From the IMG/VR virus record IMGVR_UViG_2937877337_000001, positions 9,026-73,025 of that record: DNA of 64,000 nucleotides. One strand, given 5' to 3'. This DNA is from a virus. This document shows, one piece after another, positions 1-15,337 of the stretch. Position numbers and translations under genes: made by a program. Each line of letters opens with the position of its first letter. Positions within the stretch are counted from its first letter, which is position 1. The notes under the pieces were generated by a model. The model made no database searches, was not told the DNA's origin, and saw nothing but the letters and a program-made list of their open reading frames with translations.

Positions 1-297
1 CAGGTCTTCAACCTCCCACCAGGGTACCCTGCCCTTGATGATGCGATCCGACGCCGCCTTCAATTTCTCGTTGGTCACGCTCTCGTCGAGCGAATACCAG
101 AGCATCGGCAAATCGTAGGAGAGGCTGTTGAAGCCGACCGTCGTGTTACGCAGGAGCACGCTGCGGACATAGGCCCGGTCATAGTTCGGCTGGCGCCGGC
201 TGAACTCGACGCCAACGCGCTTCCCGTCTTCCTCGCGCTTGAAGCCGATGTAGAAATAGTCGTGGAAGCACTCGATGTCGGTAAAGATTGTGCTCAA
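1..297 (-). CDS. Family A (T7-like) DNA polymerase, N-terminal 3'-5' exonuclease domain only; gene continues past the left window edge
   Basis: Minus-strand translation MSTIFTDIECFHDYFYIGF...GFNSLSYDLPML matches Exo I (D-x-E) and Exo II (N-x3-Y-D-x-P) motifs of T7-type DNAP. TTG start at 297, 9 nt after the upstream stop, with AGGG upstream. No compositional bias. Confidence 0.55.
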   Translation of the reverse strand, partial: MSTIFTDIECFHDYFYIGFKREEDGKRVGVEFSRRQPNYDRAYVRSVLLRNTTVGFNSLSYDLPMLWYSLDESVTNEKLKAASDRIIKGRVPWWEVEDL

Positions 298-306
298 GGC
301 GGACCC

Positions 307-639
307 TCAGAGCCCGTCGAACGAAAGTGTGCCCTTCGCGGGCATGGCTTCGCCGCGCTCGATCTTTTGGGCGACTTCCAGGTTTGCCCTGGCTATATCG
401 TGGGAGTTCGCGGCGTGCTGCATCTGCCGCTGTTTGCGGATGATGTAGGACATCAACGCAAGCTCCTTGGTAGGATATGCGTATCGCCTGCCCTCTGGAT
501 TTTTCAGGACGAACCGATCGACTCCATATTCGTCCAGAACGACGCATTTCGCGGTATGTCGAGCCACGGGCAGTTCCTGCAGAAATGGAACCTCGCCTGC
601 CGTCCACGGGTCCACATACCGATAGTAAATTTCAACCAT
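307..639 (-). CDS. hypothetical protein (110 aa)
   Basis: ORF 307..690 trimmed to the internal ATG at 639 (MVEIYYRYVDPW...). That ATG is directly preceded by the recurring TTCAC-type motif at 641-672. Normal amino-acid composition. Confidence 0.5.
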   Translation of the reverse strand: MVEIYYRYVDPWTAGEVPFLQELPVARHTAKCVVLDEYGVDRFVLKNPEGRRYAYPTKELALMSYIIRKQRQMQHAANSHDIARANLEVAQKIERGEAMPAKGTLSFDGL

Positions 640-640
640 T

Positions 641-672
641 TTGCGTGATTTTCCCGTAAAAAGTGAAAATGG
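641..672. promoter_or_regulatory. TTCAC/GTGAA dyad motif copy (tttcactttttacgggaaaatcacg on minus strand) immediately 5' of the start codon
   Basis: Same motif family as at about 20 other intergenic sites. AT-rich in a GC-rich genome. Confidence 0.5.
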
Positions 673-702
673 GTGCGGCCGAAACCGCACCCAATTGCCG
701 GA

Positions 703-1401
703 TCAGATATCCAGATCGAAATCGTCCGACTTCGGCTTGCTCGATGTGCCCGAGGTCGAAGGGCCTTCGTCGAAGCTGTCGTCGGCTTCCAGCGTGTCGA
801 AATCGTCGTCATCCACGTAGATGCCGCCGCCGCCGAGACGATCGCCGACCTGGCGCGAGCGAATTGCTTCGACCGAGCAGGTAATGCGCGGCGTGCCGCC
901 GTTCTCGGTGCCGTACCACGACACGATCACGTCGCCGTAGGTTCCATTGTAGACGACTTCGGGGATTTCGCTGACTTCGATGACGCGCTTGTTGCGATCG
1001 CGAATCTGCGGGCGCTTGAGGCCACCACTCGGCCCCTTCGCACTGACGACAATGTTGCCTTCGTAACCCTTGTAGATTTCGCCGGCATCCGTCTTGAACC
1101 GATCGCCCTTCTTGAAGGAAAGGTTATCGGGCTTGTCATCCCACAACTGCTTCCACCAGTCCTCTGGCTTCTTGAACTCGCGTCCCGCAGCCTTCATCGC
1201 GGAGATGCAGGCGGCCTTGTTGCTGTCGTAGTCCGGCGTGCCCTTTTCGAGAATGAAATTGGCGCCGTGCTTCGGCTTTGCATTCGGGTCCTTGTTCTTC
1301 TTCGGCAGCGACGCTGTATGCAGCGAGTCTGCGAAGGAGATGCGGACGTTCGTCAAGGTGACGGTTCGGCCGGTTTTGTCTTTCTCGTTTACTTTTCCCA
1401 T
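703..1401 (-). CDS. phage single-stranded DNA-binding protein, DUF2815 type, with acidic C-terminal tail (DDFDLDI)
   Basis: N-terminus MGKVNEKDKTGRTVTLTNVRISF is typical of DUF2815 phage SSBs. Gly-rich linker plus acidic C-terminal peptide. Sits in the replication module. Confidence 0.7.
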   Translation of the reverse strand: MGKVNEKDKTGRTVTLTNVRISFADSLHTASLPKKNKDPNAKPKHGANFILEKGTPDYDSNKAACISAMKAAGREFKKPEDWWKQLWDDKPDNLSFKKGDRFKTDAGEIYKGYEGNIVVSAKGPSGGLKRPQIRDRNKRVIEVSEIPEVVYNGTYGDVIVSWYGTENGGTPRITCSVEAIRSRQVGDRLGGGGIYVDDDDFDTLEADDSFDEGPSTSGTSSKPKSDDFDLDI

Positions 1402-1437
1402 GGTCTCAGTTCCTTGGTATCTCGGTTGCTAGGTTTC

Positions 1438-2667
1438 TCAGGTTTCGGCGGTATCGAGGTCGTCAAAATCATCGTCCCACTGCACAAGTGCAGGCTTCGG
1501 ATGATCTTCTGGCACCAGCTTTGGCTTTCCCGGTGGACGAACCAGAAGGGTTTGCAGGGCCTCCCACGTCTTGGGATGACCTGCCCTTTTTCTACCCGGC
1601 TTGACGAGCTTTTCGATCTCGCCGATGCCGATGAGTTCTCGGGGCTTGTATGCCTTGTCGCCGAGTGCGGCGGTCAGCAGTAACTCACCCTTTTTGACAT
1701 CCTTGATGCGACGATCGCCAAGGTCGCCGTCGACTGCCTTCGAGCCCGGATCGGGCTTTCCATCCAGCGCGGCGCGCAGCGACTCGTCATGCAATTCGGC
1801 CAGTCTGGCACGAATGTCGGGAGCGTGCTTGACCACCAGCCAGCGGCGCTCGCCGACCAGGTTCTGCCGCTCGTAGCCGGGAATGATGGTGTTGGGCAGT
1901 TCTGGATAGGCGTCCGCCGCCATCTCCATCAGCCAGCGGTCACGCGGTGGACAGCCGCCAGGTGCCTTGCGAACTTCGCACCACTTGCAAGCTTTCTCGC
2001 TCGGCTTGAACTCGACATCGCCGGATTCAATCTTCGCGTAGACGGCCTTCATTTCCTCGCCGAACGCGAGCAGTTCGTCGAGCGTGATTTCCCAATACTT
2101 CATGCCGCCCGCGCGCGGCTGATCGATGTTGATCACGATCTTCTCGACGTGCGGGCGACCGAGGAAGTGCCACATGCCGAGGGCGTAAAGGCGCAACTGC
2201 TTGTTGCCTTTCGCGTCAACAGGAACGCCGGCCCCAAACTTCAAATCGGAGATGTAGAGCACGACGCCGGAACTGAGCGCGGTGCTTGACAGCCAGCCCG
2301 TGTCGCAGGTACCGAACTGATCCGGCAGCCATGGCGACAGGTCCACCTGGATTTCGACATGCGGCGCGCCAGTGTGCTCGCGGACCCAATCAATGCCGGT
2401 CTGCAGATGATCGGCCATCGTATCATCGACGACGTAGGTGAAACCGTCTGCGCTGATCGTGGCGCCGACGAAGTGCCGCGCATCCAGCCCGAAGACCAGA
2501 CACATCTCGCGGACTTCGTGCGCAACGGTGCCCTCGGCAGACCAATCAGACGCGTCTCGATCGCCGATTGCGCCGTCAACATGCAGCTTGTCGAGCAGCC
2601 CCACGGATGCTGTGCATGTTGACCAGCGATCGCAGCCGGAAGGGGAGAGACGCGCGTGCGAACCCAT
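1438..2667 (-). CDS. DUF2800-family PD-(D/E)XK (Cas4/RecB-like) nuclease with C-terminal Cys cluster
   Basis: 409 aa. CDRW...C near the N-terminus and CKWCEV...GGC near the C-terminus are typical of DUF2800 phage exonucleases. Acidic C-terminus DDDFDDLDTAET. Adjacent to DUF2815 SSB and PolA, as in known phage modules. Confidence 0.65.
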   Translation of the reverse strand: MGSHARLSPSGCDRWSTCTASVGLLDKLHVDGAIGDRDASDWSAEGTVAHEVREMCLVFGLDARHFVGATISADGFTYVVDDTMADHLQTGIDWVREHTGAPHVEIQVDLSPWLPDQFGTCDTGWLSSTALSSGVVLYISDLKFGAGVPVDAKGNKQLRLYALGMWHFLGRPHVEKIVINIDQPRAGGMKYWEITLDELLAFGEEMKAVYAKIESGDVEFKPSEKACKWCEVRKAPGGCPPRDRWLMEMAADAYPELPNTIIPGYERQNLVGERRWLVVKHAPDIRARLAELHDESLRAALDGKPDPGSKAVDGDLGDRRIKDVKKGELLLTAALGDKAYKPRELIGIGEIEKLVKPGRKRAGHPKTWEALQTLLVRPPGKPKLVPEDHPKPALVQWDDDFDDLDTAET

Positions 2668-2945
2668 CAGAAAGGAATCTCGCCCATCGGTTCAGGGATT
2701 GAACGTGGCCGCGCCTCTACATCAACGATGTATATGGGTTCATGCCGAACACCCCGTTCGTCGATGATATGGAGACAGCCTTCCTCGCCCTCGTGGAGAA
2801 CACCTCGCCACGCGCCGTTGATGACATAGAAGGCATGTGCCGTTCCAAATTCGGCTTGGATGCGGCGGTCAGTCGGAGCGCCGCCGAGCCAAGCGATTGT
2901 TCCTGGCGTGAGTTCGTCGAAGGCGATGTGACGGGAGATTTCCAT
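2667..2945 (-). CDS. hypothetical protein (92 aa)
   Basis: ORF trimmed to MEISRH at 2945, which shares 1 nt with the upstream stop (TAATG coupling). Confidence 0.4.
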   Translation of the reverse strand: MEISRHIAFDELTPGTIAWLGGAPTDRRIQAEFGTAHAFYVINGAWRGVLHEGEEGCLHIIDERGVRHEPIYIVDVEARPRSIPEPMGEIPF

Positions 2946-3499
2946 TATGCGAACACGTCCCTCACAATGGCCCACAGGTCCGCGTCGCTCATCACGGCAT
3001 GACGCACGAAGCCGTTGTCGGGCTTCTTGCCGATCGGGCAGAAGACGCGAACGGGGATCGGCCGCACGTCGCCCTTGAGCATCAGCGTCGCGGTGGGCTG
3101 GTTGACGAAGGTCTCGTGGACCCTGCCGGCCGGCAGCCGGTAACTTTCCCCGGCCGGCACGACCTGCGCATGATAGGGCGTGAGCCTGACCGGATCGCCG
3201 AGCGGGACAAGAACAGTGTCCTCGCCCTCACGAACTTGCGGCGTGTAAACGTCATGCGTGACCGGCAAAGCTCGTGCAGGATAAGCCTGGTAGGTCGCGT
3301 TGACCATCACGCCGCGCAGCACGAAGCTGTAGAAATCGAACCGGTGGTCGTGCAGTTGCGTCGCCTGGCTCTGGCGCGGGATCGCATGGTGGCCCCACAC
3401 GTTGACCCGCTTGTTATCGGGCAGGTCGATCTGGATGAAGCCGTTGCCGTGGACGCGGATGCCGCTGCCCTGCTTCCTGATCTCGTCGAACGTGATCAT
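2945..3499 (-). CDS. hypothetical protein (184 aa), possibly cupin-like
   Basis: Start MITFDEIRK at 3499 overlaps the upstream stop (ATGA). His-rich motifs HGNGFIQID and HDHRFD. No family recognised. Confidence 0.5.
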   Translation of the reverse strand: MITFDEIRKQGSGIRVHGNGFIQIDLPDNKRVNVWGHHAIPRQSQATQLHDHRFDFYSFVLRGVMVNATYQAYPARALPVTHDVYTPQVREGEDTVLVPLGDPVRLTPYHAQVVPAGESYRLPAGRVHETFVNQPTATLMLKGDVRPIPVRVFCPIGKKPDNGFVRHAVMSDADLWAIVRDVFA

Positions 3500-3702
3500 G
3501 GCCTGTTCTCCATGTCGCCCTCGGCGGTGAACGGCCCCTCGAAGGAGACCGACCGATCGCCCCACTTGCGACGCGTTGACTTGTCGAAGGCCCCGACCGG
3601 GGTGCAGTAGACGAAGGGCGTTTCATCGACGATCCTCGCCGGGAAACGCTTCTCGCCGAGCACGACTAGGTGCCGGTATGCGGGGAAGATGTCGGGCGAC
3701 AT
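3496..3702 (-). CDS. hypothetical protein (68 aa)
   Basis: Internal ATG at 3702 overlaps the upstream stop (ATGA). Unbiased composition. Confidence 0.4.
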   Translation of the reverse strand: MSPDIFPAYRHLVVLGEKRFPARIVDETPFVYCTPVGAFDKSTRRKWGDRSVSFEGPFTAEGDMENRP

Positions 3703-4046
3703 CAGAGCGAGCCGAACTGATACTTCAACTGCTCGAAAGGAATGCCCGAGCGCTCGGCCATTTTGGCGCAAACACGCTTCTGACGGTCGGTCTCAGCAGC
3801 GGCGGAGGCGGCACGCACCATGCGCTTGCGCTGGCCGCGCGTCGTGCCGAGCGTGCGATGCACTTCCGGCTCTTTGGCAGGGGTGCGGAAGCCACGGCCG
3901 CCGCGCATGATCGCGAGTGCCGACTTTCGCGCCAAGAAAGCGCCGCTGCCTTCGCCGAGCGGGTTGCCGAGTGTCTGACCGATCTCGCGGTTCATGATCT
4001 TGGCGAAGACCGTCTGGCCGAATAGGGATTTGCCGAAAAAGTTCAC
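3702..4046 (-). CDS. hypothetical protein (114 aa)
   Basis: GTG start at 4046 with a perfect AGGAG 7 nt upstream. The 5' part of the annotated 212-aa ORF is Arg/Ser-rich junk and overlaps the neighbouring gene. Confidence 0.5.
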   Translation of the reverse strand: MNFFGKSLFGQTVFAKIMNREIGQTLGNPLGEGSGAFLARKSALAIMRGGRGFRTPAKEPEVHRTLGTTRGQRKRMVRAASAAAETDRQKRVCAKMAERSGIPFEQLKYQFGSL

Positions 4047-4203
4047 TGCTGTCTCCTTGTTTTCGAGGCGCTTGAGAAGCGAGCGGGAGGCCGCAGGGAA
4101 ACAGCCCGCATCCGAGAGCTTGGGAGGACAATTCTCGGAGCCCGCTCGCCACCGAAGCGCCTCCCGGCGTGCTGCCGGGAGGACTGCGACAGGCGAATTC
4201 GGA

Positions 4204-4719
4204 TCAGAGGTCGAGGTCGTCGTTGGACTTCTTCGGCGCCTCGGTGATGTCGCCCTTGGCGATGAGCTTCGCCACCTGGTCCTTGAACAGCGGGATCGCC
4301 GATTCCATGATGTGGTCGGCTGCCGATGCCTTCTCGACATCCGGCTTCTTGATCTTCTCGTGGTTCAGCAGGTTGCGCATCTTCTCCTTGCGCGCCTCGC
4401 GTTCCTCGGGGCGATCGGTGCCGGTGATGTAGCCGGCGATCAGGTCCTTGATGCCCTCATAGGGGTTGGTGCGGTTCTCGGGATCGGTCGAAATCTGACC
4501 CTTGCCGGCATCCTCGCCCTTCGTTTCGTCCTTCTTGCCGGCGTCGTCCTTCGCCTTGTCCTTGCCCTTGCCGGTGGCGGCGACTGCGGCTGTCACCTTC
4601 TCGACGGCATCGGTGCGCAGGGACAGCAAGTCCTTGGTGGCAGCGAGAAGAGCGTTGGTGGCGGCGGTGCTTTCTTTCAGTGCGGCCGTGTGTTCGGCGA
4701 TTACAGCTTCGAGGCTCAT
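4204..4719 (-). CDS. hypothetical phage protein (171 aa), Lys/Asp-rich, C-terminus NDDLDL
   Basis: First gene of the minus-strand replication operon, leaving the divergent control region. Acidic C-terminal peptide as in SSB. Confidence 0.55.
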   Translation of the reverse strand: MSLEAVIAEHTAALKESTAATNALLAATKDLLSLRTDAVEKVTAAVAATGKGKDKAKDDAGKKDETKGEDAGKGQISTDPENRTNPYEGIKDLIAGYITGTDRPEEREARKEKMRNLLNHEKIKKPDVEKASAADHIMESAIPLFKDQVAKLIAKGDITEAPKKSNDDLDL

Positions 4720-4739
4720 AGTGTCTCCTGGTGGATGGG

Positions 4740-4885
4740 TTGAAAATCACGATTAACGTGAATGCATGGTCGTTAAATCACGTTTAAAGTCACGTTTCAA
4801 GCCCCATGTGCAATAATTTCACGTTTAACTTGATTTTGCGGAACAGCGGCGTTAAGGTCGCCTCAAATCCAACCAAGGGGACGTG
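4740..4885. promoter_or_regulatory. divergent control region with at least 4 copies or half-sites of the TCACG(T/A)-TTAA-ACGTGA motif
   Basis: cacgattaacgtgaat / aatcacgtttaaagtcacgtttcaag / atttcacgtttaacttg lie between the minus-strand operon (start 4719) and the plus-strand operon (start 4883). Confidence 0.55.
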
Positions 4886-5227
4886 ATGGAACCGAATTCA
4901 CAGTCGGCGGAACCGAAGCCAGCCTATACCGGCCGCCCGCGCAAAGACGACAACTTCAAATTCTACGATGGCGCTTTGAACAAACTCCTGCTCGACAAGC
5001 TGCCATCGGCCTGCATCAAGTTTGGCCGCATCGACACGCTCGCGCTGGCCAAGGCCACGGGGAACGCCCGTTTCACCATCTACCGGTGGCTGAATGAGCA
5101 GAGACTTTCCAAGAATGCCATCCGGTCGCTGCTCAAGGTCTCTGCCGAGACCGAGGAACGCAAGAAAAAGGGCAAGTTGAAGAAGGACGATCTGATCCCC
5201 TTCTTCGATCTCGGCGACGACCTCTGA
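4883..5227 (+). CDS. small HTH DNA-binding protein (putative transcriptional regulator), C-terminus FFDLGDDL
   Basis: Helix-turn-helix-like segment IDTLALAKATGNARFTIYRWLNEQ. AAGGGGA ribosome-binding site. First gene after the operator-rich region. Confidence 0.55.
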   Translation: MMEPNSQSAEPKPAYTGRPRKDDNFKFYDGALNKLLLDKLPSACIKFGRIDTLALAKATGNARFTIYRWLNEQRLSKNAIRSLLKVSAETEERKKKGKLKKDDLIPFFDLGDDL

Positions 5228-5249
5228 TTCCCGCAGGGGAAGGCGTAAC

Positions 5250-7775
5250 ATGGCAAGTGCTCCCACGCTCGACAGCGTGCTTGATTCCGTCCGTCCGCTA
5301 ATCGAGGCCGGCGCGGCGCTGCATTGGTTGGTGCCGTTCGAAAAACGGCCAATCGCGAGAGATTGGTCAGCCGCAGCCGTGCAAACGGAGGCGTCGCTTC
5401 GCGCGAGCTACCGCGACAACGCCAACATCGGCATCCGGCTCGGTGAGCCGTCGAAGACCGAGGCTGGCTACCTTCATGTTTTCGATCTCGACATCCGAAA
5501 GCCCGAACTCGCCGCCGAGGCGTGGGCCGCAGTCGAGGCGCTTTGGCCCGGCGCGCGCACGCTGCCATCGGTCATCAGCGGTTCGGGCGGCGAGAGCCGC
5601 CACCTGTATTTTGTCGCCGAACAGCCATTGCGCAAGAAGACCCTGGCTCAGTCGAATGGCTTCGAGAAGCTGTGGGACGATCGGCAGCAGAAGTTCGTCG
5701 TCAAGCGCGACTGGATGATCGACCTGTTCGGCACGGGCGTCCAGGTCGTGCTGCCGCCCTCGATCCATCCCGACACCAAGCTTCCCTACCGATGGGAGCG
5801 CCCGCTCGATCTCGACATGATCGGCTTTGGCATCGGCCCAATCATTCCCGCCGAGGCGATCGAGAAATGGGGCGTGAAGACCTCCGTCGTCGAGGCCGGC
5901 GACGAGGAAGACGAACTTTTCGATCTCACCCGCTCCGAGCCAATGGACCTGGACGCGGCGCAGATCAGCGACATTCTCAAGCACATTCCCAACGACGGGG
6001 CCGGCGCCCACTATGACGACTATGTGCAGGTCGGCATGGCCTTGCATCACCAGTTCCGGGGCTCGAACGAGGGCTTCGAACGCTGGTGCGAATGGGCGAA
6101 GCAATCGGAGAAGTTTGACGCCAAGAACGCGGCTCTGCGCTGGCGTTCGTTCAGTCAGGATTCCAAGAACCCCGTCCGCATGGCGACGCTGATCCAGATC
6201 AGCCAGACCAACAAGCTCAAGGCCGAGTTCGATTTCGACGATGACGATGACGACGGCTTCGACAACCTGCCCGCTGTCATCGAGAAGAACGACCTCTCCG
6301 ATTTGCTCGGCGTGGCTGACGGCAACGATCTCTCCGATTTGCTCGGCGACGGTCCCACGTCCGCCGCGAAAGCGGACAAAAAGGACGCTGTTGATCCTGA
6401 CTGGCTGAGCAAGTTGCATCGCAACGAGGAAGGCGAGATCAAGAGCACCCTGCCCAACGTCGGCTTGATCGTCAATAATGACCAGCGGATGCGCCTGGTC
6501 GCCGCGTTCAATCAGTTCAGGCAAGAAATCGTGCTGATCGCAGAGCCGAAGCAGGCCCGAAAGAAGCGCGACTCAAGTCACGATCCGGTCAATCTGGAAG
6601 GCGAAATCTGGAAGCTCAAGGACCCGCTGAACGGCGACAACTGGACCGACAGCCACGACACAGCGATTCGCCACATCATTGAGTCCAAGACGCAGTTGAA
6701 GGGTTACGGGATCAAGGTCACTGACCGCGATCTGCGCGGTGCAATCGACATGAGCGCGCAGAAGCGCTCCTTCCACCCCGTCAAGAAGCTGCTCGCCTCC
6801 GAGACATGGGATGGCAAGCCCCGCGTTGAGAGCCTGTTCATTGATTACCTCGGCTGCGACGACAACGAGTACAACCGCCAGGCTTCGTTGATGACGTTCG
6901 TCGGCGCCGTGGCGCGCGTCATGCGGCCGGGCCACAAGTTCGACTTCGTGCCGATCCTTGAAGGCGCCCAGGGCAAGGGCAAATCCACGTTCATCGAAAT
7001 CCTCGGGTTGCAGTGGTATAACGAACTGACCGGCGACATCAGCGACCCGAAGCAGATGGTCGAAGTGATGCAGGGCTCGTGGATTTTGGAAATCGGCGAG
7101 CTTTCCTCCATGGCCCGCGCCGAAGTCAACGACCTGAAAGCCTTCGTCAGCCGCACACACGACAAGGTGCGTCTCGCCTGGGAGAAGCGAGCCAAGGAAT
7201 TCCCTCGGCAGTGCATCTTCATCGGCTCGACCAATGACCGCGAGTACCTGCGAGACCAGACCGGTGGCCGGCGCTTCTGGCCGATCGTCTGCAAGCTGGT
7301 GGGGCAGATCGACAATCCCCGGCTGCGCCGGGAAATTATGCAGGTATGGGCCGAGGCGCTGCACATCTTCCACGAGATGGAGAAGCAGTACAACGGCACC
7401 CTGCCGCTGTTCCTGACCGACCAGGCCGCCGAGCAGGCCCTCGTCATGCAGGAGAGCCGCCGCGTCGAGAGCAGTGAAGAGATGCTGGCGGGCAAGATCG
7501 AGGCGTGGCTTGACCAGCCTGTCGGCACCGACGAGGACTTCGACGATCTGGACCCGAATGCCCCGAAGACCTTCCGCAACGAGACCTCGGTTCAGCAGAT
7601 TTGGGAAGAGATGCTGCGCCGCGACGGCTCGGTCCCGCACACCGAAGCCATGAAGATCGGCAAGGCCATGCTGATCGTCGGGTGGCATCGCACCGAGGGT
7701 CCGGTTACAGCCCGAGAAATCAACAAAAAATACGGAAAGTGTCGCGTCTACGTGCGACCCGGAACTGAGATATAA
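5250..7775 (+). CDS. primase-polymerase (prim-pol N-domain) / PriCT-1 / VirE-D5-like P-loop NTPase replication initiator
   Basis: 841 aa. Prim-pol-like N-terminal region (LHWLVPFEKRPIARDW...HVFDLDI). PriCT-like HYDDYVQVGMALHHQF. Walker A GAQGKGKST and Walker B-like CIFIGSTND. Internal acidic linker with a duplicated NDLSDLLG. Confidence 0.75.
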   Translation: MASAPTLDSVLDSVRPLIEAGAALHWLVPFEKRPIARDWSAAAVQTEASLRASYRDNANIGIRLGEPSKTEAGYLHVFDLDIRKPELAAEAWAAVEALWPGARTLPSVISGSGGESRHLYFVAEQPLRKKTLAQSNGFEKLWDDRQQKFVVKRDWMIDLFGTGVQVVLPPSIHPDTKLPYRWERPLDLDMIGFGIGPIIPAEAIEKWGVKTSVVEAGDEEDELFDLTRSEPMDLDAAQISDILKHIPNDGAGAHYDDYVQVGMALHHQFRGSNEGFERWCEWAKQSEKFDAKNAALRWRSFSQDSKNPVRMATLIQISQTNKLKAEFDFDDDDDDGFDNLPAVIEKNDLSDLLGVADGNDLSDLLGDGPTSAAKADKKDAVDPDWLSKLHRNEEGEIKSTLPNVGLIVNNDQRMRLVAAFNQFRQEIVLIAEPKQARKKRDSSHDPVNLEGEIWKLKDPLNGDNWTDSHDTAIRHIIESKTQLKGYGIKVTDRDLRGAIDMSAQKRSFHPVKKLLASETWDGKPRVESLFIDYLGCDDNEYNRQASLMTFVGAVARVMRPGHKFDFVPILEGAQGKGKSTFIEILGLQWYNELTGDISDPKQMVEVMQGSWILEIGELSSMARAEVNDLKAFVSRTHDKVRLAWEKRAKEFPRQCIFIGSTNDREYLRDQTGGRRFWPIVCKLVGQIDNPRLRREIMQVWAEALHIFHEMEKQYNGTLPLFLTDQAAEQALVMQESRRVESSEEMLAGKIEAWLDQPVGTDEDFDDLDPNAPKTFRNETSVQQIWEEMLRRDGSVPHTEAMKIGKAMLIVGWHRTEGPVTAREINKKYGKCRVYVRPGTEI

Positions 7776-7796
7776 TCGATCATCGAATAGGATTGA

Positions 7797-7822
7797 ATTG
7801 ACCCGCTTCGGCGGGTTTTTTC
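7797..7822 (+). terminator. rho-independent terminator after the primase gene
   Basis: gacccgcttcggcgggtc stem followed by a T6 run. Confidence 0.6.
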
Positions 7823-7829
7823 ATGCCAA

Positions 7830-8320
7830 ATGCAATCTGTTGCATGATGGGTTCCATCGCATCTGCGCTTTTCCGCGAAATGGAATGTATTCCACTTTCT
7901 CCCCGCCATTCTCAGCCTCTCACGCTCTCAGGCGGATTCCCATATAGTTTGCAGCGGCACCTTACGACCAGTCGGCTAGGCGTATGCCTCTCCTTCAGAT
8001 CCTCCTTCTTATAAACTATATCTATTTTAGGGTGAGAAGGCTGAGAGAGTGAGACAGTACTGATTTAATTGAGCTTTTTCGCTCACCCTAGTCAAAATGA
8101 GACTGAGAATGACTGAGAAGCGGTTTTGCTGCGCCGAATTTAACCGAAATCACGTTAAGATTGAAATATTCCCATCTGCTACCCCGTTTTCGTGAGCATT
8201 CCTCATATTTCCGGGGGATTGTGAGTGATCCTCACGTTTGATCTCGTTTCTCTGCGCTGAATTTCACATTTCGCGTGAATCGCGCTCAGCGCCTCCCGCA
8301 GCCGATCGACCCACCCAGGA
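7830..8320. other. putative origin of replication: AT-rich non-coding region with iteron-like CTGAGA(A/G) repeats and an AGGGTGAG / CTCACCCT inverted repeat
   Basis: No credible ORF. tgagaaggctgagagagtgagac and aatgagactgagaatgactgagaag direct repeats. Inverted repeat about 50 bp apart at about 8028 and about 8088. Additional TTCAC motif copies at 8150-8280. Lies immediately downstream of the initiator/primase gene. Confidence 0.35.
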
Positions 8321-8625
8321 AGGACCCAAAGCCACCATGCTATTGATTTCATTGCGCTTTTCGTCGTCGATGAAGCGCGGACACAATCGATCATGCCGCC
8401 TATCGAATGTGCTAACCAATTGAATTCATTATGCAAATGTGTCCTATCCCCTGCCATGCATCATGCATCGGGCAGCGCTGCAGCATGTCAACGCGTTGAA
8501 TCCGTTGCACAAAAGGCGATTGATCCTATCGCATTTGGACCTGCCACCATGCCGGCGCGGCCGGCCTAGTTGCCACGGGGCAAAGGCTGCAGAAGCGATG
8601 CGGGATATCCCGTTTCGGGCAGCGC

Positions 8626-8710
8626 CTCGACCTGGCAGCATCGAGCACGGCAGCCTCGACCACGGCAGCGCCTCGACCACGGCAGCGCCTCGACCACGGC
8701 AGCGCCTGGC
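8626..8710. repeat. 17-bp tandem direct repeat (cgaccacggcagcgcct), 3 perfect and about 2 degenerate copies
   Basis: Read directly at 8641-8710. GC-rich. Sits in an otherwise non-coding stretch next to the AT-rich iteron region. Confidence 0.75.
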
Positions 8711-9010
8711 CGCTGGCAAGCCCGAGCACATGGCGCAATGCTACCAGGCAGCGCGGCAGCCGGCTCGGGCAGCCATGGAAGGAATCCCGCGCGCGGCCTG
8801 AGATCACATTCCCGCGCCTCGGCAGCGATAGCGCGGCACGGGCAAAAGCTGGACGCATGGCCAAGCGCAACAATGCGCCGGTAGACATTGCCCTAGCTGG
8901 CGCCGCGCCTTGGAATGAGCGCTATATCACCACGGCAAGCCCGAGCGACTTCCACGCTTCCGGCTATCGGTTCGAACGGTTGGAATAGACCGCTTGACTC
9001 GGCAGCTAGT

Positions 9011-9033
9011 TTCACGTTTAATGTGAAAGTCAC
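9011..9033 (+). promoter_or_regulatory. dyad motif tTCACGTttaatGTGAAagtcac, 16 nt upstream of the 9050 start
   Basis: Near-identical copy at 11444-11468. Confidence 0.55.
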
Positions 9034-9049
9034 TAAACGGAGTCACGCT

Positions 9050-9277
9050 ATGCAATTCGATCCTTCATACAAGCCGCGCCGCGACGGGCTGCCCGAAATG
9101 ATCGCGGCGAAGATGGACTCCATTTTCTACGCTCGCCGCGCCGCTGGCTTGAATGTCCAGTTTGTGCGCGAAAGCGACGGGCAGCTTGACGAATGGTCGC
9201 TTGCCGATACTGAGCGGCGCGACGCGTTTACAGCTTCACTGCAGCGGCAAGGCATTGCCTTTGCCATTTCCCACTAG
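9050..9277 (+). CDS. hypothetical protein (75 aa)
   Basis: ATG at 9050 preceded by GGAG and the dyad motif. The longer ORF from 8915 is Ser/Ala-rich and upstream of the motif. Confidence 0.5.
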   Translation: MQFDPSYKPRRDGLPEMIAAKMDSIFYARRAAGLNVQFVRESDGQLDEWSLADTERRDAFTASLQRQGIAFAISH

Positions 9278-9288
9278 GAGTCGAGATC

Positions 9289-9582
9289 ATGGCCACAATT
9301 CAGGAAAAGATTAAGCTTGCGCGCGCCTTCGGCAGCCTGATTCAAGGCGAACTATCCCCGCGCCAATTCCGCGCCATGTGCGACGCAAACAAGGCCGAAC
9401 CGGAAGACTCTGGCGTATGCCACTCGCACGACTACGTCGACGCGAATATGACCATGCTTGCCGCCTTTCAAGCGACGTTCAACCGCGATCCGGCATTCCT
9501 GAGCGACTCGGAAGAAACGGCAGATTTGCAGCTTTGGAATGACGCATGGGCGATTGCCAAAGCTGCCGATTTCTTCGCCTGA
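9289..9582 (+). CDS. hypothetical protein (97 aa)
   Basis: AGGAG ribosome-binding site. Clean composition. Confidence 0.55.
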   Translation: MATIQEKIKLARAFGSLIQGELSPRQFRAMCDANKAEPEDSGVCHSHDYVDANMTMLAAFQATFNRDPAFLSDSEETADLQLWNDAWAIAKAADFFA

Positions 9583-9589
9583 ATAGACT

Positions 9590-9613
9590 TTCACCTTTAA
9601 CGGGAGATTCACC
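9590..9613 (+). promoter_or_regulatory. motif variant TTCACcTTTAACGGGAGATTCACc ending 1 nt before the ATG (the GGGAGA doubles as the ribosome-binding site)
   Basis: Same 24-mer again at about 9856-9880, about 12782-12805 and about 28605-28628. Related copy at 26113-26136. Confidence 0.55.
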
Positions 9614-9614
9614 A

Positions 9615-9866
9615 ATGCTTGCCAAATTGCTTGCAACCGCTTGCGCCACGGGCATTAGCGCCTTTGCGCTTGTGTATCGCATTCCAGCCCTGCCCGAGAC
9701 GGCGCCACGGTTCGAAGTTCGAGTCGTCACCTATGACGGGCAGCTATTCATTGCCGGAAGCGGCGACGATTGCCGCGCGGCATGGCAAGGCGCCGAAGTG
9801 CCGAAGGGCTGGCAGTCAATCGAATGTGTCGACGCAAATGCGCCGCGCTTCGCCTTTCACTTTTAA
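9615..9866 (+). CDS. small exported protein (83 aa) with N-terminal signal or lipoprotein-like segment
   Basis: MLAKLLATACATGISAFALV signal-like N-terminus. Motif plus ribosome-binding site directly upstream. Confidence 0.5.
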   Translation: MLAKLLATACATGISAFALVYRIPALPETAPRFEVRVVTYDGQLFIAGSGDDCRAAWQGAEVPKGWQSIECVDANAPRFAFHF

Positions 9867-9882
9867 CGGGAGATTCACGACG

Positions 9883-10095
9883 ATGGATCACAAACACGCC
9901 ATTTCCCTTGTCACGCTGGCGCGCCACGCATGGCAGAACGGTTTCCCTATCACTGCCGACGTTTACATGCGGCAGGCGCTGGCTTGCCTCAATAGGACGC
10001 GCGACACGCGGCACAAGGCAGCGCTTTTCACCATTCGCAACAAAATGCGGCCGCGCGTCCAGGCTGCCCGCAATCCGTCGCCAATTGGAGCTTGA
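9883..10095 (+). CDS. hypothetical protein (70 aa)
   Basis: ATG at 9883 immediately after the motif copy at 9856-9880. Confidence 0.5.
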   Translation: MDHKHAISLVTLARHAWQNGFPITADVYMRQALACLNRTRDTRHKAALFTIRNKMRPRVQAARNPSPIGA

Positions 10096-10098
10096 ACC

Positions 10099-10422
10099 GT
10101 GTCCAAATATTTCCATGTCTCGCAAGGCTTGCGCGGTTGCTACATGCCCGACTCGGCCTATTGCATCAAAGTCGACACGCGGCGCGACCTGAAAAACGCG
10201 TTGGAATGGGAAGCGCGCGACATTCGCGACGCTGGATTCATTGGCTGCAGCAAAGCGGCCGTTGCAAGCCTTGCGGCTGCCGCATGGCGAGAAGCTCACA
10301 AGCGCAAGCCGTCGCTTTATCCGCACGTGGCGCCCTACGGCAGCCGCGACAATCGACATTCGGCGATTCATGTGTCGGTTGCGACGCGTGCCGAGTATCT
10401 GGAATCGCTTGACGACGAATAA
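10099..10422 (+). CDS. hypothetical protein (107 aa)
   Basis: GTG start with GGAG 8 nt upstream. Confidence 0.5.
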   Translation: MSKYFHVSQGLRGCYMPDSAYCIKVDTRRDLKNALEWEARDIRDAGFIGCSKAAVASLAAAAWREAHKRKPSLYPHVAPYGSRDNRHSAIHVSVATRAEYLESLDDE

Positions 10423-10465
10423 GCCGGCCGCGCTTTCCCCTTCACAATTTCAAGGAGTCAAGATC

Positions 10466-11431
10466 ATGAATGACCTGCTTTTGAACGCGTATCGCTTCCA
10501 CCGCTTTGAAGCTGTTGGAAACGTCTATCCTGCCCGCAAGGGATATCGCCGACACAATCCCGCGAATGAGGCGCTAAAGGCTGCCCGTCGCGACGTTGCG
10601 GCCTATGCCGAGGCGCTTGCAGCCGGCGACACGAAAACCGCAAGCCGGTTCCGGCGATATCCGCGCGACCATTACGCGGCCGTGACATGGCAGAAGCGCG
10701 ACACTGAGTCCCCTTCCTATGCCAAACGTGCCGAGTGCATTGCATTCGTCCAGGATTTCAGCGGCGCCGGCTTGCGCCATGTTGGCAACGTGGAAGCCGA
10801 TACACCGCGCGGCAAGATTTGGAGCAACCGCGACTCCTGCGGCTGGTATAGCGACTATGACCAATCGGAAACGATTTATGGAGTCGTCTATCAGCTACCA
10901 GGCCGCGACGGCAAAGCGCGGTTTGTGGCAGGCTATGCCAGCGCGGGAGATTGCGACGGGCTGCCGACTCTCGACTTCGGCGCAGTCTATTCCGAAGATA
11001 TGCGCGGCGATCGATACAATGAAAGCGCGCAAGATTTGGACGCTGCCCGCGACGCTGCCCGAGCGGCCGATTCCATGGCGCAAAGCGCGGCCGAAGATGA
11101 ACGGGCATATAAAGCCGCTTGGCAGGCTGGCAGTCAGTTTGCCGAGCGTGCCGAGACCATTGCAGCCAATCGCAAAGCCGCGCTTGAATTGCTTGCCGAG
11201 CGGCGCCGCGCTGCCACGGCAGGCAAAGGCGAGGCATTCCAGGCGATTTGCGGCGCGATCCGCGACAAGGTGGACTCGTTGCTTGCCGAGATCGCAGAAG
11301 CCCGAGCCGAGCGCAAAAAGCTAAAGGCCGGCGACTATATCAGCGAATGGCTGCCCGGCTTCTATAGCGGCGACAAGCGGTTAAAATCGGCTTTTAATGA
11401 AGGCGCCGGCAAAACCATTTTCCCCTGTTGA
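10466..11431 (+). CDS. hypothetical protein (321 aa)
   Basis: ATG at 10466 with AAGGAG ribosome-binding site. The longer ORF from 10241 overlaps the upstream gene. Confidence 0.6.
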   Translation: MNDLLLNAYRFHRFEAVGNVYPARKGYRRHNPANEALKAARRDVAAYAEALAAGDTKTASRFRRYPRDHYAAVTWQKRDTESPSYAKRAECIAFVQDFSGAGLRHVGNVEADTPRGKIWSNRDSCGWYSDYDQSETIYGVVYQLPGRDGKARFVAGYASAGDCDGLPTLDFGAVYSEDMRGDRYNESAQDLDAARDAARAADSMAQSAAEDERAYKAAWQAGSQFAERAETIAANRKAALELLAERRRAATAGKGEAFQAICGAIRDKVDSLLAEIAEARAERKKLKAGDYISEWLPGFYSGDKRLKSAFNEGAGKTIFPC

Positions 11432-11443
11432 CTCGCAACGTGA

Positions 11444-11468
11444 TTTCACGTTTAATGTGAAAGTCACG
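11444..11468 (+). promoter_or_regulatory. dyad motif tTTCACGTttaatGTGAAagtcacg
   Basis: Duplicate of the 9011 copy. Followed by GGAG and ATG at 11486. Confidence 0.55.
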
Positions 11469-11485
11469 AAACGGAGTTAGACCCA

Positions 11486-11623: not shown

Positions 11624-11624
11624 C

Positions 11625-11643
11625 TTTCACGATTAACGTGCAT
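11625..11643 (+). promoter_or_regulatory. motif copy TTCACGaTTAACGTGc
   Basis: Followed by AAAGGAG and ATG at 11665. Confidence 0.5.
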
Positions 11644-11664
11644 ATCAACAAAAGGAGTCATGCC

Positions 11665-11781: not shown

Positions 11782-11832
11782 TCGGCCGCGCCTTCCATCC
11801 TTCCAAACCGTCAAACTCAGGGAATCCAAACC

Positions 11833-15333: not shown

Positions 15334-15337
15334 ATTG

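Follow-up and report, generated by a model that had tools for sequence, protein, structure and literature searches.

The stretch of DNA that we analyzed (64,000 nt, referred to throughout as the window) belongs to a ~71-kb integrated Casjensviridae-like prophage of Mesorhizobium, which has an integrase and a tRNA gene at its left end and host genes beyond both ends. A 166-bp intergenic region (positions 4720 to 4885) separates two divergent operons. The leftward replication operon starts with a gene for a 171-aa protein (4204 to 4719, minus strand), a homologue of RcD gp8 (43% identity with gp8 of RcCWillis) that had no match in Pfam or PHROG scans, and continues with a DUF2800/PD-(D/E)XK exonuclease, an Enc34-type SSB, and a PolB-like polymerase. 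The first gene on the other side encodes a small HTH protein of 113 aa (4886 to 5227, plus strand; 114 aa if the GTG at 4883 is the start), which corresponds by synteny to the Cro-like protein of the family. This gene is cotranscribed with one for a primase-polymerase/PriCT/VapE-type helicase (5250 to 7775, plus strand; Prim-Pol, 3e-19; PriCT_2, 2e-17; VapE-like, 6e-74). This gene order agrees with the earlier note on this region, which had placed a minus-strand SSB/nuclease/polymerase operon on one side and a plus-strand HTH gene followed by a primase on the other. A terminator-like hairpin is located after the primase gene, at 7800 to 7817.

The 113-aa HTH protein matched an Xre/Cro-type fold at weak significance only. 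Its recognition helix was invariant among the Mesorhizobium homologues, and the homologues recovered by tblastn were confined to RcD phages, which share the TCAC motif described below. Its C terminus, DDLIPFFDLGDDL, is an acidic-aromatic tail that we take to resemble SSB C-terminal tips, and the phage SSB and other replication-module proteins end similarly. Apart from it, the scans pointed to three possible DNA-binding proteins in the window: an AlpA-family protein (60765 to 60947), a GapR homologue (27251 to 27532), and a weak HTH match (26952 to 27200). Scans of ~45 window proteins against Pfam and PHROG left the early region nearly all without annotation and revealed no RNA polymerase or sigma factor gene.

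Four elements, two palindromes and two half-sites, lie between 4747 and 4833. The palindrome O-left (4747 to 4761, TCACGATTAACGTGA) is perfect; the ATG that opens the leftward operon (4719) lies 42 nt downstream of its minus-strand T1. Its arms, TCACG and CGTGA, were invariant in an alignment of six Mesorhizobium prophage loci while three of the five central bases varied, and the arms were kept in the Rhodobacter phage RcCWillis as well. The near-perfect palindrome O-right (4819 to 4833, TCACGTTTAACTTGA; one mismatch in the right arm) lies 67 nt upstream of the start codon of the HTH gene, and AATTTCACGTTTAACTTGATTTT within it was near-invariant in the six Mesorhizobium loci (one substitution, in L005). 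Between the palindromes, the half-site TCACGTTT occurs twice on the plus strand as direct repeats 12 bp apart, at 4778 to 4785 and at 4790 to 4797, the second running into a conserved block, CACGTTTCAAGCCC. The first is not a conserved palindrome, because its left arm was kept in the alignment and its would-be right arm was not.

The earlier note had counted at least four operator copies here; there are indeed four elements, but only two of them are full sites. The three motif strings that it quoted are present where it placed them (cacgattaacgtgaat at 4748 to 4763, aatcacgtttaaagtcacgtttc at 4776 to 4798, and tttcacgtttaacttg at 4817 to 4832), and the repeat that it recognized is real, although its unit is not a 10-mer but a palindrome in which 7 bases separate TCAC from GTGA. 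The region does have the highest local density of the motif, with six TCACG/CGTGA pentamers in the 150 bp from 4747 (four in the next best intervals of that length), although one of the six, at 4882, overlaps the start codon and so counts as incidental.

Next, we looked at how the motif is distributed over the prophage. The operator consensus is a palindrome of 15 to 19 bp, tTTCACg-N5-cGTGAAa (6-N5-6 geometry), whose information content in a position weight matrix was symmetric. The window contains 13 copies of the half-site TCACGTTT, where 1.6 were expected and 100 shuffles gave no more than 5; TCACGTTTAA with at most one mismatch occurred 26 times against 1.6 expected, and TCAC-N7-GTGA occurred 9 times against 0.8 expected, whereas the other spacings from N2 to N10 gave 0 to 3 matches. 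The window holds 25 palindromes, 23 of them intergenic in a sequence that is 12.9% noncoding (binomial P value = 8e-19), and they lie 17 to 67 nt upstream of a start codon, usually 17 to 40 nt. Three further sites just left of the window bring the prophage total to ~28, and the palindrome was absent from the ~9 kb of flanking host DNA examined. The sites are also oriented: a third TCAC, 3 nt after GTGA, points toward the gene at 14 of 22 sites and away from it at none, and the central base on the gene strand is T at 16 of 22 sites. A simple symmetric dimer does not explain this oriented third half-site. The motif is thus a prophage-wide palindromic repressor-type site that is densest in the region from 4720 to 4885 and extends beyond the replication module. 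The proposal that the region is a switch for the replication module is not borne out, given that the sites also stand in the head, tail, and lysis operons.

In the left part of the window, a palindrome at 652 to 666 (minus-strand reading, TCACTTTTTACGGGA-aaa-TCAC) lies 27 nt before the ATG of the gene at 307 to 639 and is preceded by a terminator hairpin at 670 to 693. Two weaker palindromes, at 8150 to 8164 (TCACGTTAAGATTGA) and 8264 to 8278 (TCACATTTCGCGTGA, conserved in L004 to L007), lie inside the 1.27-kb noncoding stretch that follows the primase gene. In the sites that we call class A, the AT-rich center of the palindrome occupies the place expected for a -10 hexamer, 17 nt after a TTGAC(T/G) box; these include 9012 to 9026 (TTGACT-N12-TCACGTTTAATGTGA-aag-TCAC, 38 nt before the ATG at 9050) and 11446 to 11460 (TTGACT 12 nt upstream). 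In class B, the site stands directly before a start codon within an operon, and its right arm also serves as the ribosome-binding site. To this class belong 9591 to 9605 (TCACCTTTAACGGGAGATTCAC, 24 nt before the ATG, the right arm also being the Shine-Dalgarno sequence), 9857 to 9871 (TCACTTTTAACGGGAGATTCAC), 12780 to 12794 (25 nt before the ATG at 12805), 26114 to 26128 (26 nt before the ATG at 26140), and 28606 to 28620 (ahead of a DNA methylase gene).

Additional palindromes are found at 11627 to 11641 (TCACGATTAACGTGC); at 16347 to 16361, with TTGACG 12 nt upstream, in a second divergent region (minus-strand gene at 15958 to 16206, plus-strand gene at 16384 to 16563); at 19915 to 19929 (TCACTTTTAAATTGA-cat-TCAC); at 22483 to 22497, over the 3' end of the gene at 21925 to 22497 and 59 nt before the next ATG; and at 27212 to 27226 (TCACGTTTATAGTGA, TTGACG upstream), ahead of the gene for the GapR homologue. 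A pair on the minus strand, 18 bp apart from start to start, occupies 33767 to 33799 (TCACGTTTAACTTGA-taa-TCACGTTTGAACGTG). In the structural part of the prophage, palindromes precede the RcD gp46 homologue of the tail region (39580 to 39594; orthologous RcCWillis site, 43761) and the tail-tube gene (50716 to 50730; orthologous RcCWillis site, 34762), one separates the tape-measure gene from the minor tail gene that follows it (45396 to 45410), and two stand between the genes for the terminase large subunit and a gpW-like protein (57647 to 57701; orthologous RcCWillis sites, 27616 and 27655). Two more (60979 to 61021) precede the first gene of the late (terminase) operon, which is AlpA-like, and diverge from the gene at 61269 to 61655.

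The fixed position of the box suggests that class A sites coincide with promoters. TTGAC(T/G) stands 12 nt before TCAC at 9012, 11446, and 16347, which places the box 17 nt before the center of the palindrome, and at 27212 a TTGAC box lies 16 nt before TATAGT. The early-region sites of RcCWillis at 59017, 61751, and 65281 have the same arrangement, and the box is 11 nt before TCAC at 59619 and 62465. About 18 of the window sites have no -35 box. Since the central hexamers TTTAAT and TTTAAC are missing the canonical A at -11 (position 2) and no motif site scored as a promoter in a strict scan for sigma-70 promoters and terminators, we only infer the promoter overlap; on this reading, the operators in 4720 to 4885 would overlap two divergent promoters. 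Class B sites are unable to be the promoters of the genes that they precede, so for them a second mode, roadblock or translational, is assumed.

We then examined the motif in relatives. Searches of related viral contigs yielded three relatives, and further lineages came from a scan of genome contigs with alignment of the CI-like protein introduced below. Four related 20-kb loci (L004 to L007) carry 10 to 11 sites each, and RcCWillis has 15 exact copies of the palindrome against 0.8 expected. Some of these copies occupy orthologous positions, both between the divergent genes gp7 and gp8 and ahead of the genes for the tail tube, gp46, gpW, and gp26. In Ruegeria phage V18, searches with 4-mer and 5-mer arms and an intergenic k-mer enrichment analysis found no palindrome network; its TGAT-N7-ATCA matches fall mostly in coding sequence. 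The published descriptions of RcD (PMC8601537), AchV4 (PMC7996906), and AH2 (PMC3483164) do not mention the motif; for RcD, a hypervariable early region was described in which repeats correlate with gene diversity (PMC8601537).

These results raise the question of which protein reads the palindrome. The prophage encodes a candidate CI-like repressor of 222 aa (L014:14439-15107), whose gene lies toward the far end of the same leftward operon, 3.8 to 4.5 kb to the left of position 1 of the window and 8.7 kb from the small HTH gene. The lysogen is GCA_004792105.1, and on contig SRTD01000002.1 the gene for this protein occupies about 182073 to 182741. The half-site followed the recognition helix of this distal protein in nine of the ten lineages compared, which, since repressor, operators, and genome are co-inherited and the lineages are not independent, represents perhaps two to four independent changes; the 6-N5-6 geometry was constant. 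The helix ETVRKW goes with TTCACG (Mesorhizobium prophages, RcD, Celeribacter, Asticcacaulis, and Amylibacter), EAVRKW with TTCAAC (Achromobacter phage AchV4, Rhizobium phage RHph_X2_30, and a Stutzerimonas prophage), and QEGVRKW with AACAAC (Burkholderia phage AH2, with eight copies, all intergenic, and a Phycisphaeraceae metagenome-assembled genome). TTCAAC palindromes numbered 11 in AchV4 against 0.24 expected and 15 in RHph_X2_30 against 0.56 expected. The tenth lineage, L023, has an ETV helix yet only a degenerate site. The CI-like homologue of V18 has the helix NAMSKW.

Profile searches of the CI-like protein against the PDB returned weak N-terminal HTH matches (best, 3bs3, E = 0.0024; N-terminal domain of TP901-1 CI, E about 0.1) and no C-terminal match. 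Pfam detected no S24 peptidase domain in it and gave no match for the orthologues of L008 and RcD, and V18 gp65 had a weak HTH_3 match. In relatives, HHpred had assigned the 222-aa type to CI of phage 186 and the small protein to Cro or cI (PMC3483164, PMC7996906). At the corresponding helix position, the residue in the adjacent HTH protein is T, A, A, S, or Y and does not follow the motif consistently. The palindrome binder is therefore most likely the candidate 222-aa CI-like protein, and the adjacent HTH protein, which the earlier note had named as the prime candidate regulator, is left as a possible second (Cro-like) binder. Most likely, the latter is a predicted Cro-like early regulator, and its targets in this region may be identical to or overlap those of the CI-like protein and may include, for instance, the two extra TCACGTTT half-sites.

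The opposite assignment, in which the 113-aa protein recognizes the palindromes as an autoregulator and global phage regulator and the CI-like protein binds something else, is unlikely in our judgment. Its gene adjoins the densest cluster of sites, it has the weakly significant Xre/Cro-type fold, its helix does not vary among the Mesorhizobium homologues, just as the arms of the sites do not, and its tblastn homologues are restricted to the RcD phages, which share the TCAC motif. In four lineages the helix position even follows the half-site, with T accompanying TCAC (Mesorhizobium and RcD) and A accompanying TCAA (AchV4 and X2_30), but this rule fails in the added lineages (A with a TCAC-type site in Asticcacaulis, S with TCAC in Amylibacter, and Y with TCAA in Stutzerimonas). 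Furthermore, AchV4 and X2_30 share an identical operator although their small-HTH helices differ (SPWAIYRW and SHEAIYKM), while their CI-like helices are nearly identical, and a 113-aa early protein is unlikely to keep ~28 sites silent in a lysogen. The two assignments are also compatible, as both proteins could bind the same sites in the way that lambda CI and Cro do.

We consider it improbable that the motif is instead a phage-specific promoter, either a core element used by the host RNA polymerase with or without a phage activator or sigma-like factor or a mobile promoter cassette. Such an element would fit the location of the sites before genes (that at 652 following a terminator), their strong orientation in the third TCAC and central T, the TTGAC box at a fixed distance in three to four window sites and five in RcCWillis, and the concentration of sites in the hypervariable early region. 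However, RNA polymerase needs no two-fold symmetry, yet conservation is strongest in the symmetric arms; the half-site covaries with the helix of an HTH repressor across hosts whose sigma-70 is conserved; and the scanned window proteins include no RNA polymerase or sigma factor. At class B sites, where the right arm is the Shine-Dalgarno sequence, a transcript begun past the center of the palindrome would lack it. At class A sites, a promoter and an operator on top of it are compatible.

The position of the region between two replication operons, the two extra half-sites arranged as direct repeats 12 bp apart, and the acidic-aromatic tail of the HTH protein, with its likeness to SSB tips, would suit a replication origin at which the small HTH protein binds TCACG repeats and recruits the replisome. 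We regard this as very improbable, since the TCACG motif is palindromic and dispersed over the genome, structural operons included, and forms no local iteron array. A better origin candidate lies 3 kb away in the 1.27-kb noncoding stretch, which has an AT-rich tract and, at 8618 to 8712, an array of tandem 17-bp iterons (GGCAGCGCCTCGACCAC) unrelated to the TCACG motif.

We give the least credence to a host global regulator (CtrA, which binds TTAA-N7-TTAA, or a CRP/FNR-type dimer) coupling phage expression to host physiology. CtrA control of alphaproteobacterial phages has been proposed (PMC9437464), one TTAA-N7-TTAA match lies at 4771 to 4787, and the center of the motif is rich in TTTAA, but in four of the five related loci the second TTAA of that match is TTTG, the center of the RcD sites (GTTAGAT) contains no TTAA, and the conserved TCAC/GTGA arms fall outside the CtrA box. 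A host factor is an unlikely binder because the phages of two Rhizobiales hosts differ (TCAC in one, TCAA in the other) and because TCAA is common to phages of alpha-, beta-, and gammaproteobacterial hosts; moreover, the ~9 kb of flanking host DNA examined contains no site.

Two further candidates were rejected. An RNA hairpin or translational operator as the main reading would have class A transcripts starting inside or after the right arm and class B arms that pair poorly (TCAC with GGGA), and conserved arms around a variable center fit protein-DNA recognition; a search of positions 1 to 12000 against Rfam gave no match, so no known RNA element explains the region. N4-like hairpin or T7-like promoters, suggested by TTTAACGGGAGA, were dismissed for a Casjensviridae-type siphovirus with no phage RNA polymerase gene among the proteins scanned.

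Our preferred reading, which we hold to be probable, is that 4720 to 4885 is the divergent early promoter/operator region of a genome-wide network, with the candidate 222-aa CI-like protein as its likely binder. In the lysogen, a dimeric repressor of the Xre/CI type would occupy all of the sites and keep transcription from starting at the early promoters, among them the two of this region; read-through at the sites within operons might be blocked too, leaving the whole prophage silent. The comparison with a CI/Cro-type control region therefore holds in part: there is a conserved divergent region with palindromic sites of the operator type, but there is no adjacent CI/Cro pair of the lambda type.

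This network shares features with several known systems. As in lambda, 434, and P22, the operators are palindromes (14 to 18 bp in those phages, read by Xre-type HTH dimers), several of them lie in a divergent region, and both a long CI-like and a short Cro-like protein are encoded. The half-site TCAC resembles the lambda TATCAC, which may be a coincidence. Unlike in the lambda switch, the CI-like and Cro-like genes are 8.7 kb apart and neither adjacent nor divergent, the gene divergent from the Cro-like one encodes the 171-aa protein without a Pfam or PHROG match, the operators extend beyond one or two control regions, and no S24 peptidase domain was detected by Pfam in the CI-like protein. 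A further comparison is with CI of phage 186, which AH2 gp70, an orthologue of the CI-like protein, matched with an HHpred probability of 99.87% (PMC3483164). The likeness would consist of a similar size, an N-terminal HTH, and a C-terminal domain of the oligomerization type, although our PDB profile search gave weak N-terminal matches only. The operators of 186 are arranged quite differently, around pR and pL with flanking sites, and 186 is not known to have a genome-wide operator network, unlike this prophage.

The principle of many dispersed operators for one phage repressor is itself already known from phages L5 and phiC31. The repressor of phiC31 (c gene) acts at 17-bp conserved inverted repeats (CIRs) in more than 15 intergenic positions, mostly beside similar early promoters, so that one repressor controls many transcription units. 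A palindromic repressor-type site repeated at many intergenic positions is common to both phages, while the repressor family and the host differ; the CIRs are concentrated in the early region, whereas here the sites also precede head, tail, and lysis genes. We know of no phiC31 counterpart to the Shine-Dalgarno overlap or the third half-site. In the cluster A mycobacteriophage L5, the repressor gp71 has more than 20 sites genome-wide, at promoters and in short intergenic spaces within operons; the orientation of these stoperators correlates with the direction of transcription, and they have been proposed to silence initiation and elongation in the lysogen (PMC9283540). The present ~28 dispersed sites, with 23 of the 25 in the window intergenic and an orientation that follows transcription (14 of 22 against 0 of 22), are similar. 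Unlike here, the L5 site is an asymmetric 13-mer bound by a monomer with two DNA-binding domains; our 15- to 19-bp core is symmetric, which implies a dimer, and its asymmetry is limited to the added third half-site. The candidate repressor is also of the Xre/186-CI-like type, its hosts are Gram negative, and it has no known relationship with gp71.

On this basis, we tentatively suggest, as a rather doubtful extension of the preferred reading, that temperate Casjensviridae-like phages of Proteobacteria may follow a stoperator-like strategy, in which one 186-CI-like repressor and ~30 oriented operators of three half-sites would silence both initiation and elongation, with immunity evolving by joint change of helix and operator. 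Initiation would be silenced at the early promoters and elongation blocked at the intra-operon sites of the early, replication, structural, and lysis genes, and translation would perhaps be blocked where the right arm is the Shine-Dalgarno sequence. Immunity specificity would shift by one or two helix residues (T, A, or G in E-x-VRKW) together with all of the operators. If so, these Gram-negative phages would have independently reinvented the mycobacteriophage L5 system in a dimer-based form.

If confirmed, the network would provide the first regulatory map for the Casjensviridae-like siphophages and prophages, which are widespread but poorly studied and whose hosts include Rhizobiales, Rhodobacterales, Burkholderiales, and Pseudomonadales. 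It would name the operator and the likely repressor, and the code of ETV to TCAC, EAV to TCAA, and QEGV to AACAAC would predict immunity groups. Possible uses include orthogonal repressor/operator pairs for alphaproteobacterial genetics, the placing of transcription-unit boundaries in genomes whose early genes are nearly all unannotated, and the prediction of superinfection immunity among rhizobial and Rhodobacter phages.

The intergenic stretch at 4720-4885 has on its left a minus-strand gene (4204-4719, with its ATG at 4719) and on its right the plus-strand gene of a small helix-turn-helix (HTH) protein of 113 aa (4886-5227; an alternative start is possible at a GTG at 4883). The earlier note had described it as a divergent control region with at least four operator copies; the three strings quoted there were all found where it placed them, and the local density of the motif is indeed the highest here, with six TCACG/CGTGA pentamers in the 150-bp stretch from 4747 and at most four elsewhere in the window. 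Two palindromes and two half-sites make up the cluster. The left palindrome, TCACGATTAACGTGA (4747-4761), is perfect and stands 42 nt upstream of the ATG that opens the leftward operon; the half-sites, both TCACGTTT, are direct repeats at 4778-4785 and 4790-4797; and the right palindrome, TCACGTTTAACTTGA (4819-4833), has one right-arm mismatch and is found 67 nt upstream of the HTH start. Directly 5' of this right palindrome is a possible extended -10 (TGcAATAAT, 4809-4817), read by eye.

Across the window, TCACGTTT was present 13 times (1.6 expected) and TCACGTTTAA, allowing at most one mismatch, 26 times (1.6 expected). Viewing all matches with their flanks revealed that the 10-mer of the earlier note was the left two-thirds of a palindrome, and an iterated weight matrix reached the consensus aaTTTCACgTTtAAaCGTGAAAtt, whose symmetric information content is high across the TCAC/GTGA arms and drops in the AT-rich center. 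The matrix yielded 52 strand matches, equivalent to 25 palindromes in the window, compared to 0 to 3 in shuffled sequence. TCAC-N7-GTGA occurred 9 times versus 0.8 expected, and the other spacings (N2-N6 and N8-N10) 0 to 3 times. By a simple codon-usage gene call, which is heuristic, 23 of the 25 palindromes were intergenic in a window that is 12.9% noncoding (binomial P = 8e-19); the remaining two overlap the last codons of a gene. At 14 of 22 sites, a third TCAC follows three bases past the GTGA (TCAC-N7-GTGA-N3-TCAC), read toward the downstream gene, and four further sites have TCAA in this place; a third half-site in the opposite reading direction was found at none of the 22. Palindromes are present on both sides of the genome's strand switch and precede early, replication, methylase, lysis, tail, head, and terminase genes. 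Because the sites stand before genes of so many modules, the motif is not a property of the replication module, to which it had been tied.

Gene order and protein similarity (36 proteins, 30 to 74% identity) fit the Rhodobacter capsulatus RcD-cluster phages, an example of which is RcCWillis (68.8 kb, Casjensviridae). Unclassified Mesorhizobium strains encode a protein with 100% identity to the 113-aa HTH protein, on a 760-kb contig (SRTD01000002.1, GCA_004792105.1; contig position = 186540 + window position p). Past window base 1, the leftward operon continues with a PolB-like polymerase, an SNF2 helicase, a CI-like gene, and a DNA methylase, beyond which lie a tyrosine integrase adjoining a tRNA gene and then host genes; on the right, host genes begin just past the window end, beyond the Band_7 gene. 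This arrangement of integrase, tRNA, and host genes at the left and host genes at the right indicates that the element is an integrated prophage of about 71 kb, all of which except about 8 kb is included in the window. The prophage part outside the window holds three more palindromes, and the flanking host DNA (about 9 kb scanned) holds none. The site is thus present in about 28 copies, nearly all between genes, and it is 2-fold symmetric, with conserved arms and a free center. The tRNA gene beside the integrase at the left prophage end (L014:18440-18520, L014 being the flank left of the window) is the probable attachment site. At the right end, the SPFH/Band_7 protein (681 aa, 61955-64000, minus strand) and a 128-aa protein (61269-61655, plus strand), which separate the late operon from the host Nramp gene, have no RcD counterpart and may be lysogenic-conversion or defense cargo.

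We aligned the divergent region across six related Mesorhizobium prophage loci. The arms TCACG/CGTGA of the 4747-4761 site were invariant and three of its five center bases variable (ATTAA, CAAAA, TCAAA, and CTAAA); 4819-4833 and its flanks were invariant, save one upstream substitution in locus L005; and at 4778-4797 both left half-sites were conserved and the would-be right arms were not. The Mesorhizobium loci L004 to L007 (20 kb each) carry 10 to 11 sites per locus, of both classes (A and B) defined below. RcCWillis (~67% DNA identity) has 15 exact TCAC-N7-GTGA sites (0.8 expected) with a different center (GTTAGAT), and 26 of its 78 sites with at most one mismatch fall in annotated intergenic DNA, which is 7.6% of the genome. 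Its sites are orthologous in position before the tail-tube gene, gp46, the gpW-like gene, and gp26 and in the gp7/gp8 divergent region, and at five early promoters a TTGACT box is followed 11 to 12 nt on by the palindrome. The -35 box at RcCWillis early promoters also lies within a second palindrome, TAGTCAACnGTTGACTA (L002/L003, 59000-65300, 181-225, and 66568-66613).

The palindrome is therefore kept at orthologous positions across large distances, and it also covaries with a repressor-type HTH. Of the two candidate binders, the 113-aa protein, named the prime candidate regulator in the earlier note, has an evident HTH segment (LAKATGNARFTIYRWLNEQ); Pfam and PHROG scans gave no match, AlphaFold modeled it with moderate confidence (pLDDT 67), and Foldseek against the PDB returned no significant match. 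The CI-like protein (222 aa, L014:14439-15107, 3.8 to 4.5 kb left of window base 1) has an Xre-type HTH at its N terminus (GRLGWFVDRLEQHKVQVAKETVRKWFAGETRPR) and, at its C terminus, a domain of about 130 residues. CI-like homologues were found in 50 phage records across the Casjensviridae, and small-HTH homologues, by tblastn, only in the 23 RcD phages. In AchV4, RHph_X2_30, and V18, a small protein alignable to the 113-aa HTH lies upstream of the primase, divergent from the replication operon; in AH2, that position is held by an unrelated small HTH, gp77.

We searched the relatives' whole genomes for overrepresented inverted repeats. TCAA-N7-TTGA (aTTCAAC-N5-GTTGAAt) was recovered from Achromobacter phage AchV4 (11 copies versus 0.24 expected, 8/11 intergenic) and Rhizobium phage RHph_X2_30 (15 versus 0.56, 12/15 intergenic), and AACAAC-N5-GTTGTT from Burkholderia phage AH2 (8 versus 0.28, 8/8 intergenic), all with the window's geometry of 6-bp arms and a 5-bp center. 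In a comparison whose lineages are not phylogenetically independent, the CI-like recognition helix was (K/A)ETVRKW in the Mesorhizobium and RcD phages (TCAC), (H/P)EAVRKW in AchV4 and RHph_X2_30 (TCAA), and QEGVRKW in AH2 (AACAAC). Scanning the CI-like alignment against 185,579 species genomes added six prophages: Celeribacter, Asticcacaulis, and Amylibacter have the ETV helix and a TCAC-N7-GTGA directly 5' of the CI-like gene; L023, a fourth ETV locus, has only a degenerate site; Stutzerimonas has the EAV helix and four TCAAC-N5-GTTGA sites, flanking the small-HTH gene on both sides and 5' of the CI-like gene; and a Phycisphaeraceae MAG has the QEGV helix and an AACAAC-N5-GTTGT site. In Ruegeria phage V18, the CI-like protein is present (helix NAMSKW) and the palindrome network was not detected. 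AH2 has a second overrepresented palindrome in its early region, GACAC-N9-GTGTC (6 copies versus 0.07 expected; L020 and L021, 5954, 6647, 8416, 10994, 12976, and 57620), which may be the site of a second regulator.

The corresponding helix position of the small HTH is T in Mesorhizobium and RcD (TCAC) and A in AchV4 and RHph_X2_30 (TCAA) but also A in Asticcacaulis (TCAC), S in Amylibacter (TCAC), and Y in Stutzerimonas (TCAA). AchV4 and RHph_X2_30 have identical operators and nearly identical CI-like helices, whereas their small-HTH helices differ (SPWAIYRW versus SHEAIYKM). Binding of the palindrome by the small HTH would be compatible with the CI-like protein as repressor, but this covariation speaks against it and the proposal is disfavored. 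Since the half-site follows the CI-like helix and not the small-HTH helix, the CI-like protein is the better candidate for the factor defining the palindrome, and the small HTH, which heads the primase operon, is best viewed as a Cro-like early regulator, whose target may be the palindromes, the two additional half-sites, or another sequence. The CI-like gene is itself preceded by a site (L014:14351-14365), which lies about 3.7 kb to the left of window base 1 and adjoins a TTGACT box (TTGACTtTCACTTATAATGTGC); RcCWillis, Celeribacter, and Asticcacaulis have this TTGACT-n-TCAC arrangement as well. In 4/4 Mesorhizobium loci, the distal arm of this site is imperfect (GTGC), and its extension is directed away from the gene; we speculate that it is a weakened autoregulatory site.

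The palindrome overlaps promoter-like elements with -35/-10 spacing at some sites and ribosome-binding sites at others. Class A sites (9012, 11446, and 16347, and 27212 with a shorter gap) have TTGAC(T/G) 12 nt 5' of the first TCAC, a central hexamer (TTTAAT and similar) 17 nt past this -35-like box, and a start codon 30 to 33 nt past the palindrome center, after a GGAG ribosome-binding site. Class B sites (652 on the minus strand, 9591, 9857, 12780, 26114, and 28606) follow the pattern TCACnTTTAACGGGAGAtTCACnn(n)ATG, in which the right arm reads CGGGA(G) in place of CGTGA, lies 8 to 11 nt before the ATG, and doubles as the Shine-Dalgarno sequence. The intraoperon sites comprise class B and those within structural operons, which have no -35. 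A motif that was simply a promoter element would account for the orientation bias and the TTGAC boxes, and for class A sites the terms "promoter" and "operator" both apply to one place, but the symmetry, the covariation with the HTH helix, and the class B sites would be left unexplained. Because a transcript using a class B ribosome-binding site must start upstream, these sites cannot serve as promoters for the genes that follow them, at least with the palindrome center taken as the -10. The class A site at 16347-16361 is the one palindrome of a second small divergent region (15377-16563) inside the rightward early genes, where minus-strand genes (106 and 82 aa) face a plus-strand 59-aa gene; none of the three proteins has a Pfam match, and a bidirectional-looking terminator lies at 15337-15361.

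That the copies are origin iterons is unlikely, given that the motif is dispersed and that 7776-9050, with an AT-rich tract and unrelated 17-bp tandem repeats, is a much better origin candidate. This 1.27-kb stretch without a called gene, directly 3' of the primase-helicase gene, looks like a replication origin with iterons: it holds a terminator-like hairpin (7800-7817), the AT-rich tract, which has CTGAGA-type repeats (about 7990-8125), and four to five copies of the 17-bp unit GGCAGCGCCTCGACCAC in tandem (8618-8712), with more GGCAGC-rich copies to about 8950. Comparable gaps 3' of the primase gene occur in L005 and RcCWillis. Binding by CtrA or another host regulator is not supported. A host factor is unlikely because motif type tracks the phage rather than its host: phages infecting alpha-, beta-, and gammaproteobacteria share the TCAA type, and two Rhizobiales phages differ in motif type.

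Three further features concern other proteins of the prophage. A homologue of GapR, a Caulobacter nucleoid protein that binds AT-rich/overtwisted DNA, is encoded at 27251-27532 on the plus strand (PF10073, E = 2.8e-33), just downstream of the palindrome at 27212; its RcD orthologue is annotated "DsbA-like." A 60-aa AlpA-family HTH (60765-60947, minus strand; PF05930, E = 3e-13), preceded by two palindromes, is encoded at the head of the terminase/late operon and may be a late regulator or an excisionase; V18, AH2, and RHph_X2_30 have a small "transcriptional regulator/excisionase" at this position. Similar acidic-hydrophobic tails are found at the C termini of many proteins, most of them from the replication module: DDFDLDI (703-1401, minus), DDDFDDLD (1438-2667, minus), NDDLDL (4204-4719, minus), DDLIPFFDLGDDL (4886-5227, plus), NDLDDLLV (27574-27963 and 27967-28362, both plus), YDLSDLLN (28362-28601, plus), and SDDLDI (52292-52783, minus). 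These resemble SSB C-terminal tips and so may be a common docking peptide for one partner protein.

The kind of system described here is already known. The closest in function are the L5 repressor system and the phiC31 repressor, which has conserved inverted repeats. For the L5 repressor, more than 20 operator/stoperator sites are described, oriented in line with transcription (PMC9283540); because the prophage sites are symmetric, the present system is not a strict L5-family member. Nor is the switch of the lambda type, as 8.7 kb separates the CI-like gene from the Cro-like gene and the operators are spread over the whole genome. Neither the operator network nor the helix/half-site relation appears to have been described for this phage family: HHpred had assigned the long protein of AH2 as 186-CI-like and the short one as Cro-like (PMC3483164) and both proteins of AchV4 as cI related (PMC7996906), with no operator proposed, and the palindrome is absent from the papers on AH2 (PMC3483164), AchV4 (PMC7996906), and RcD (PMC8601537). 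From the sequence, we infer that in the lysogen a CI-like dimer would sit on the sites. In the divergent region and at class A sites, the dimer would cover the promoters at their -10 or start; at intraoperon sites, it would serve as a roadblock or, on the DNA, hide the ribosome-binding region, in a manner comparable to the L5 stoperators (PMC9283540). With one palindrome before the leftward operon and another before the HTH start, a single repressor could shut both early replication operons.
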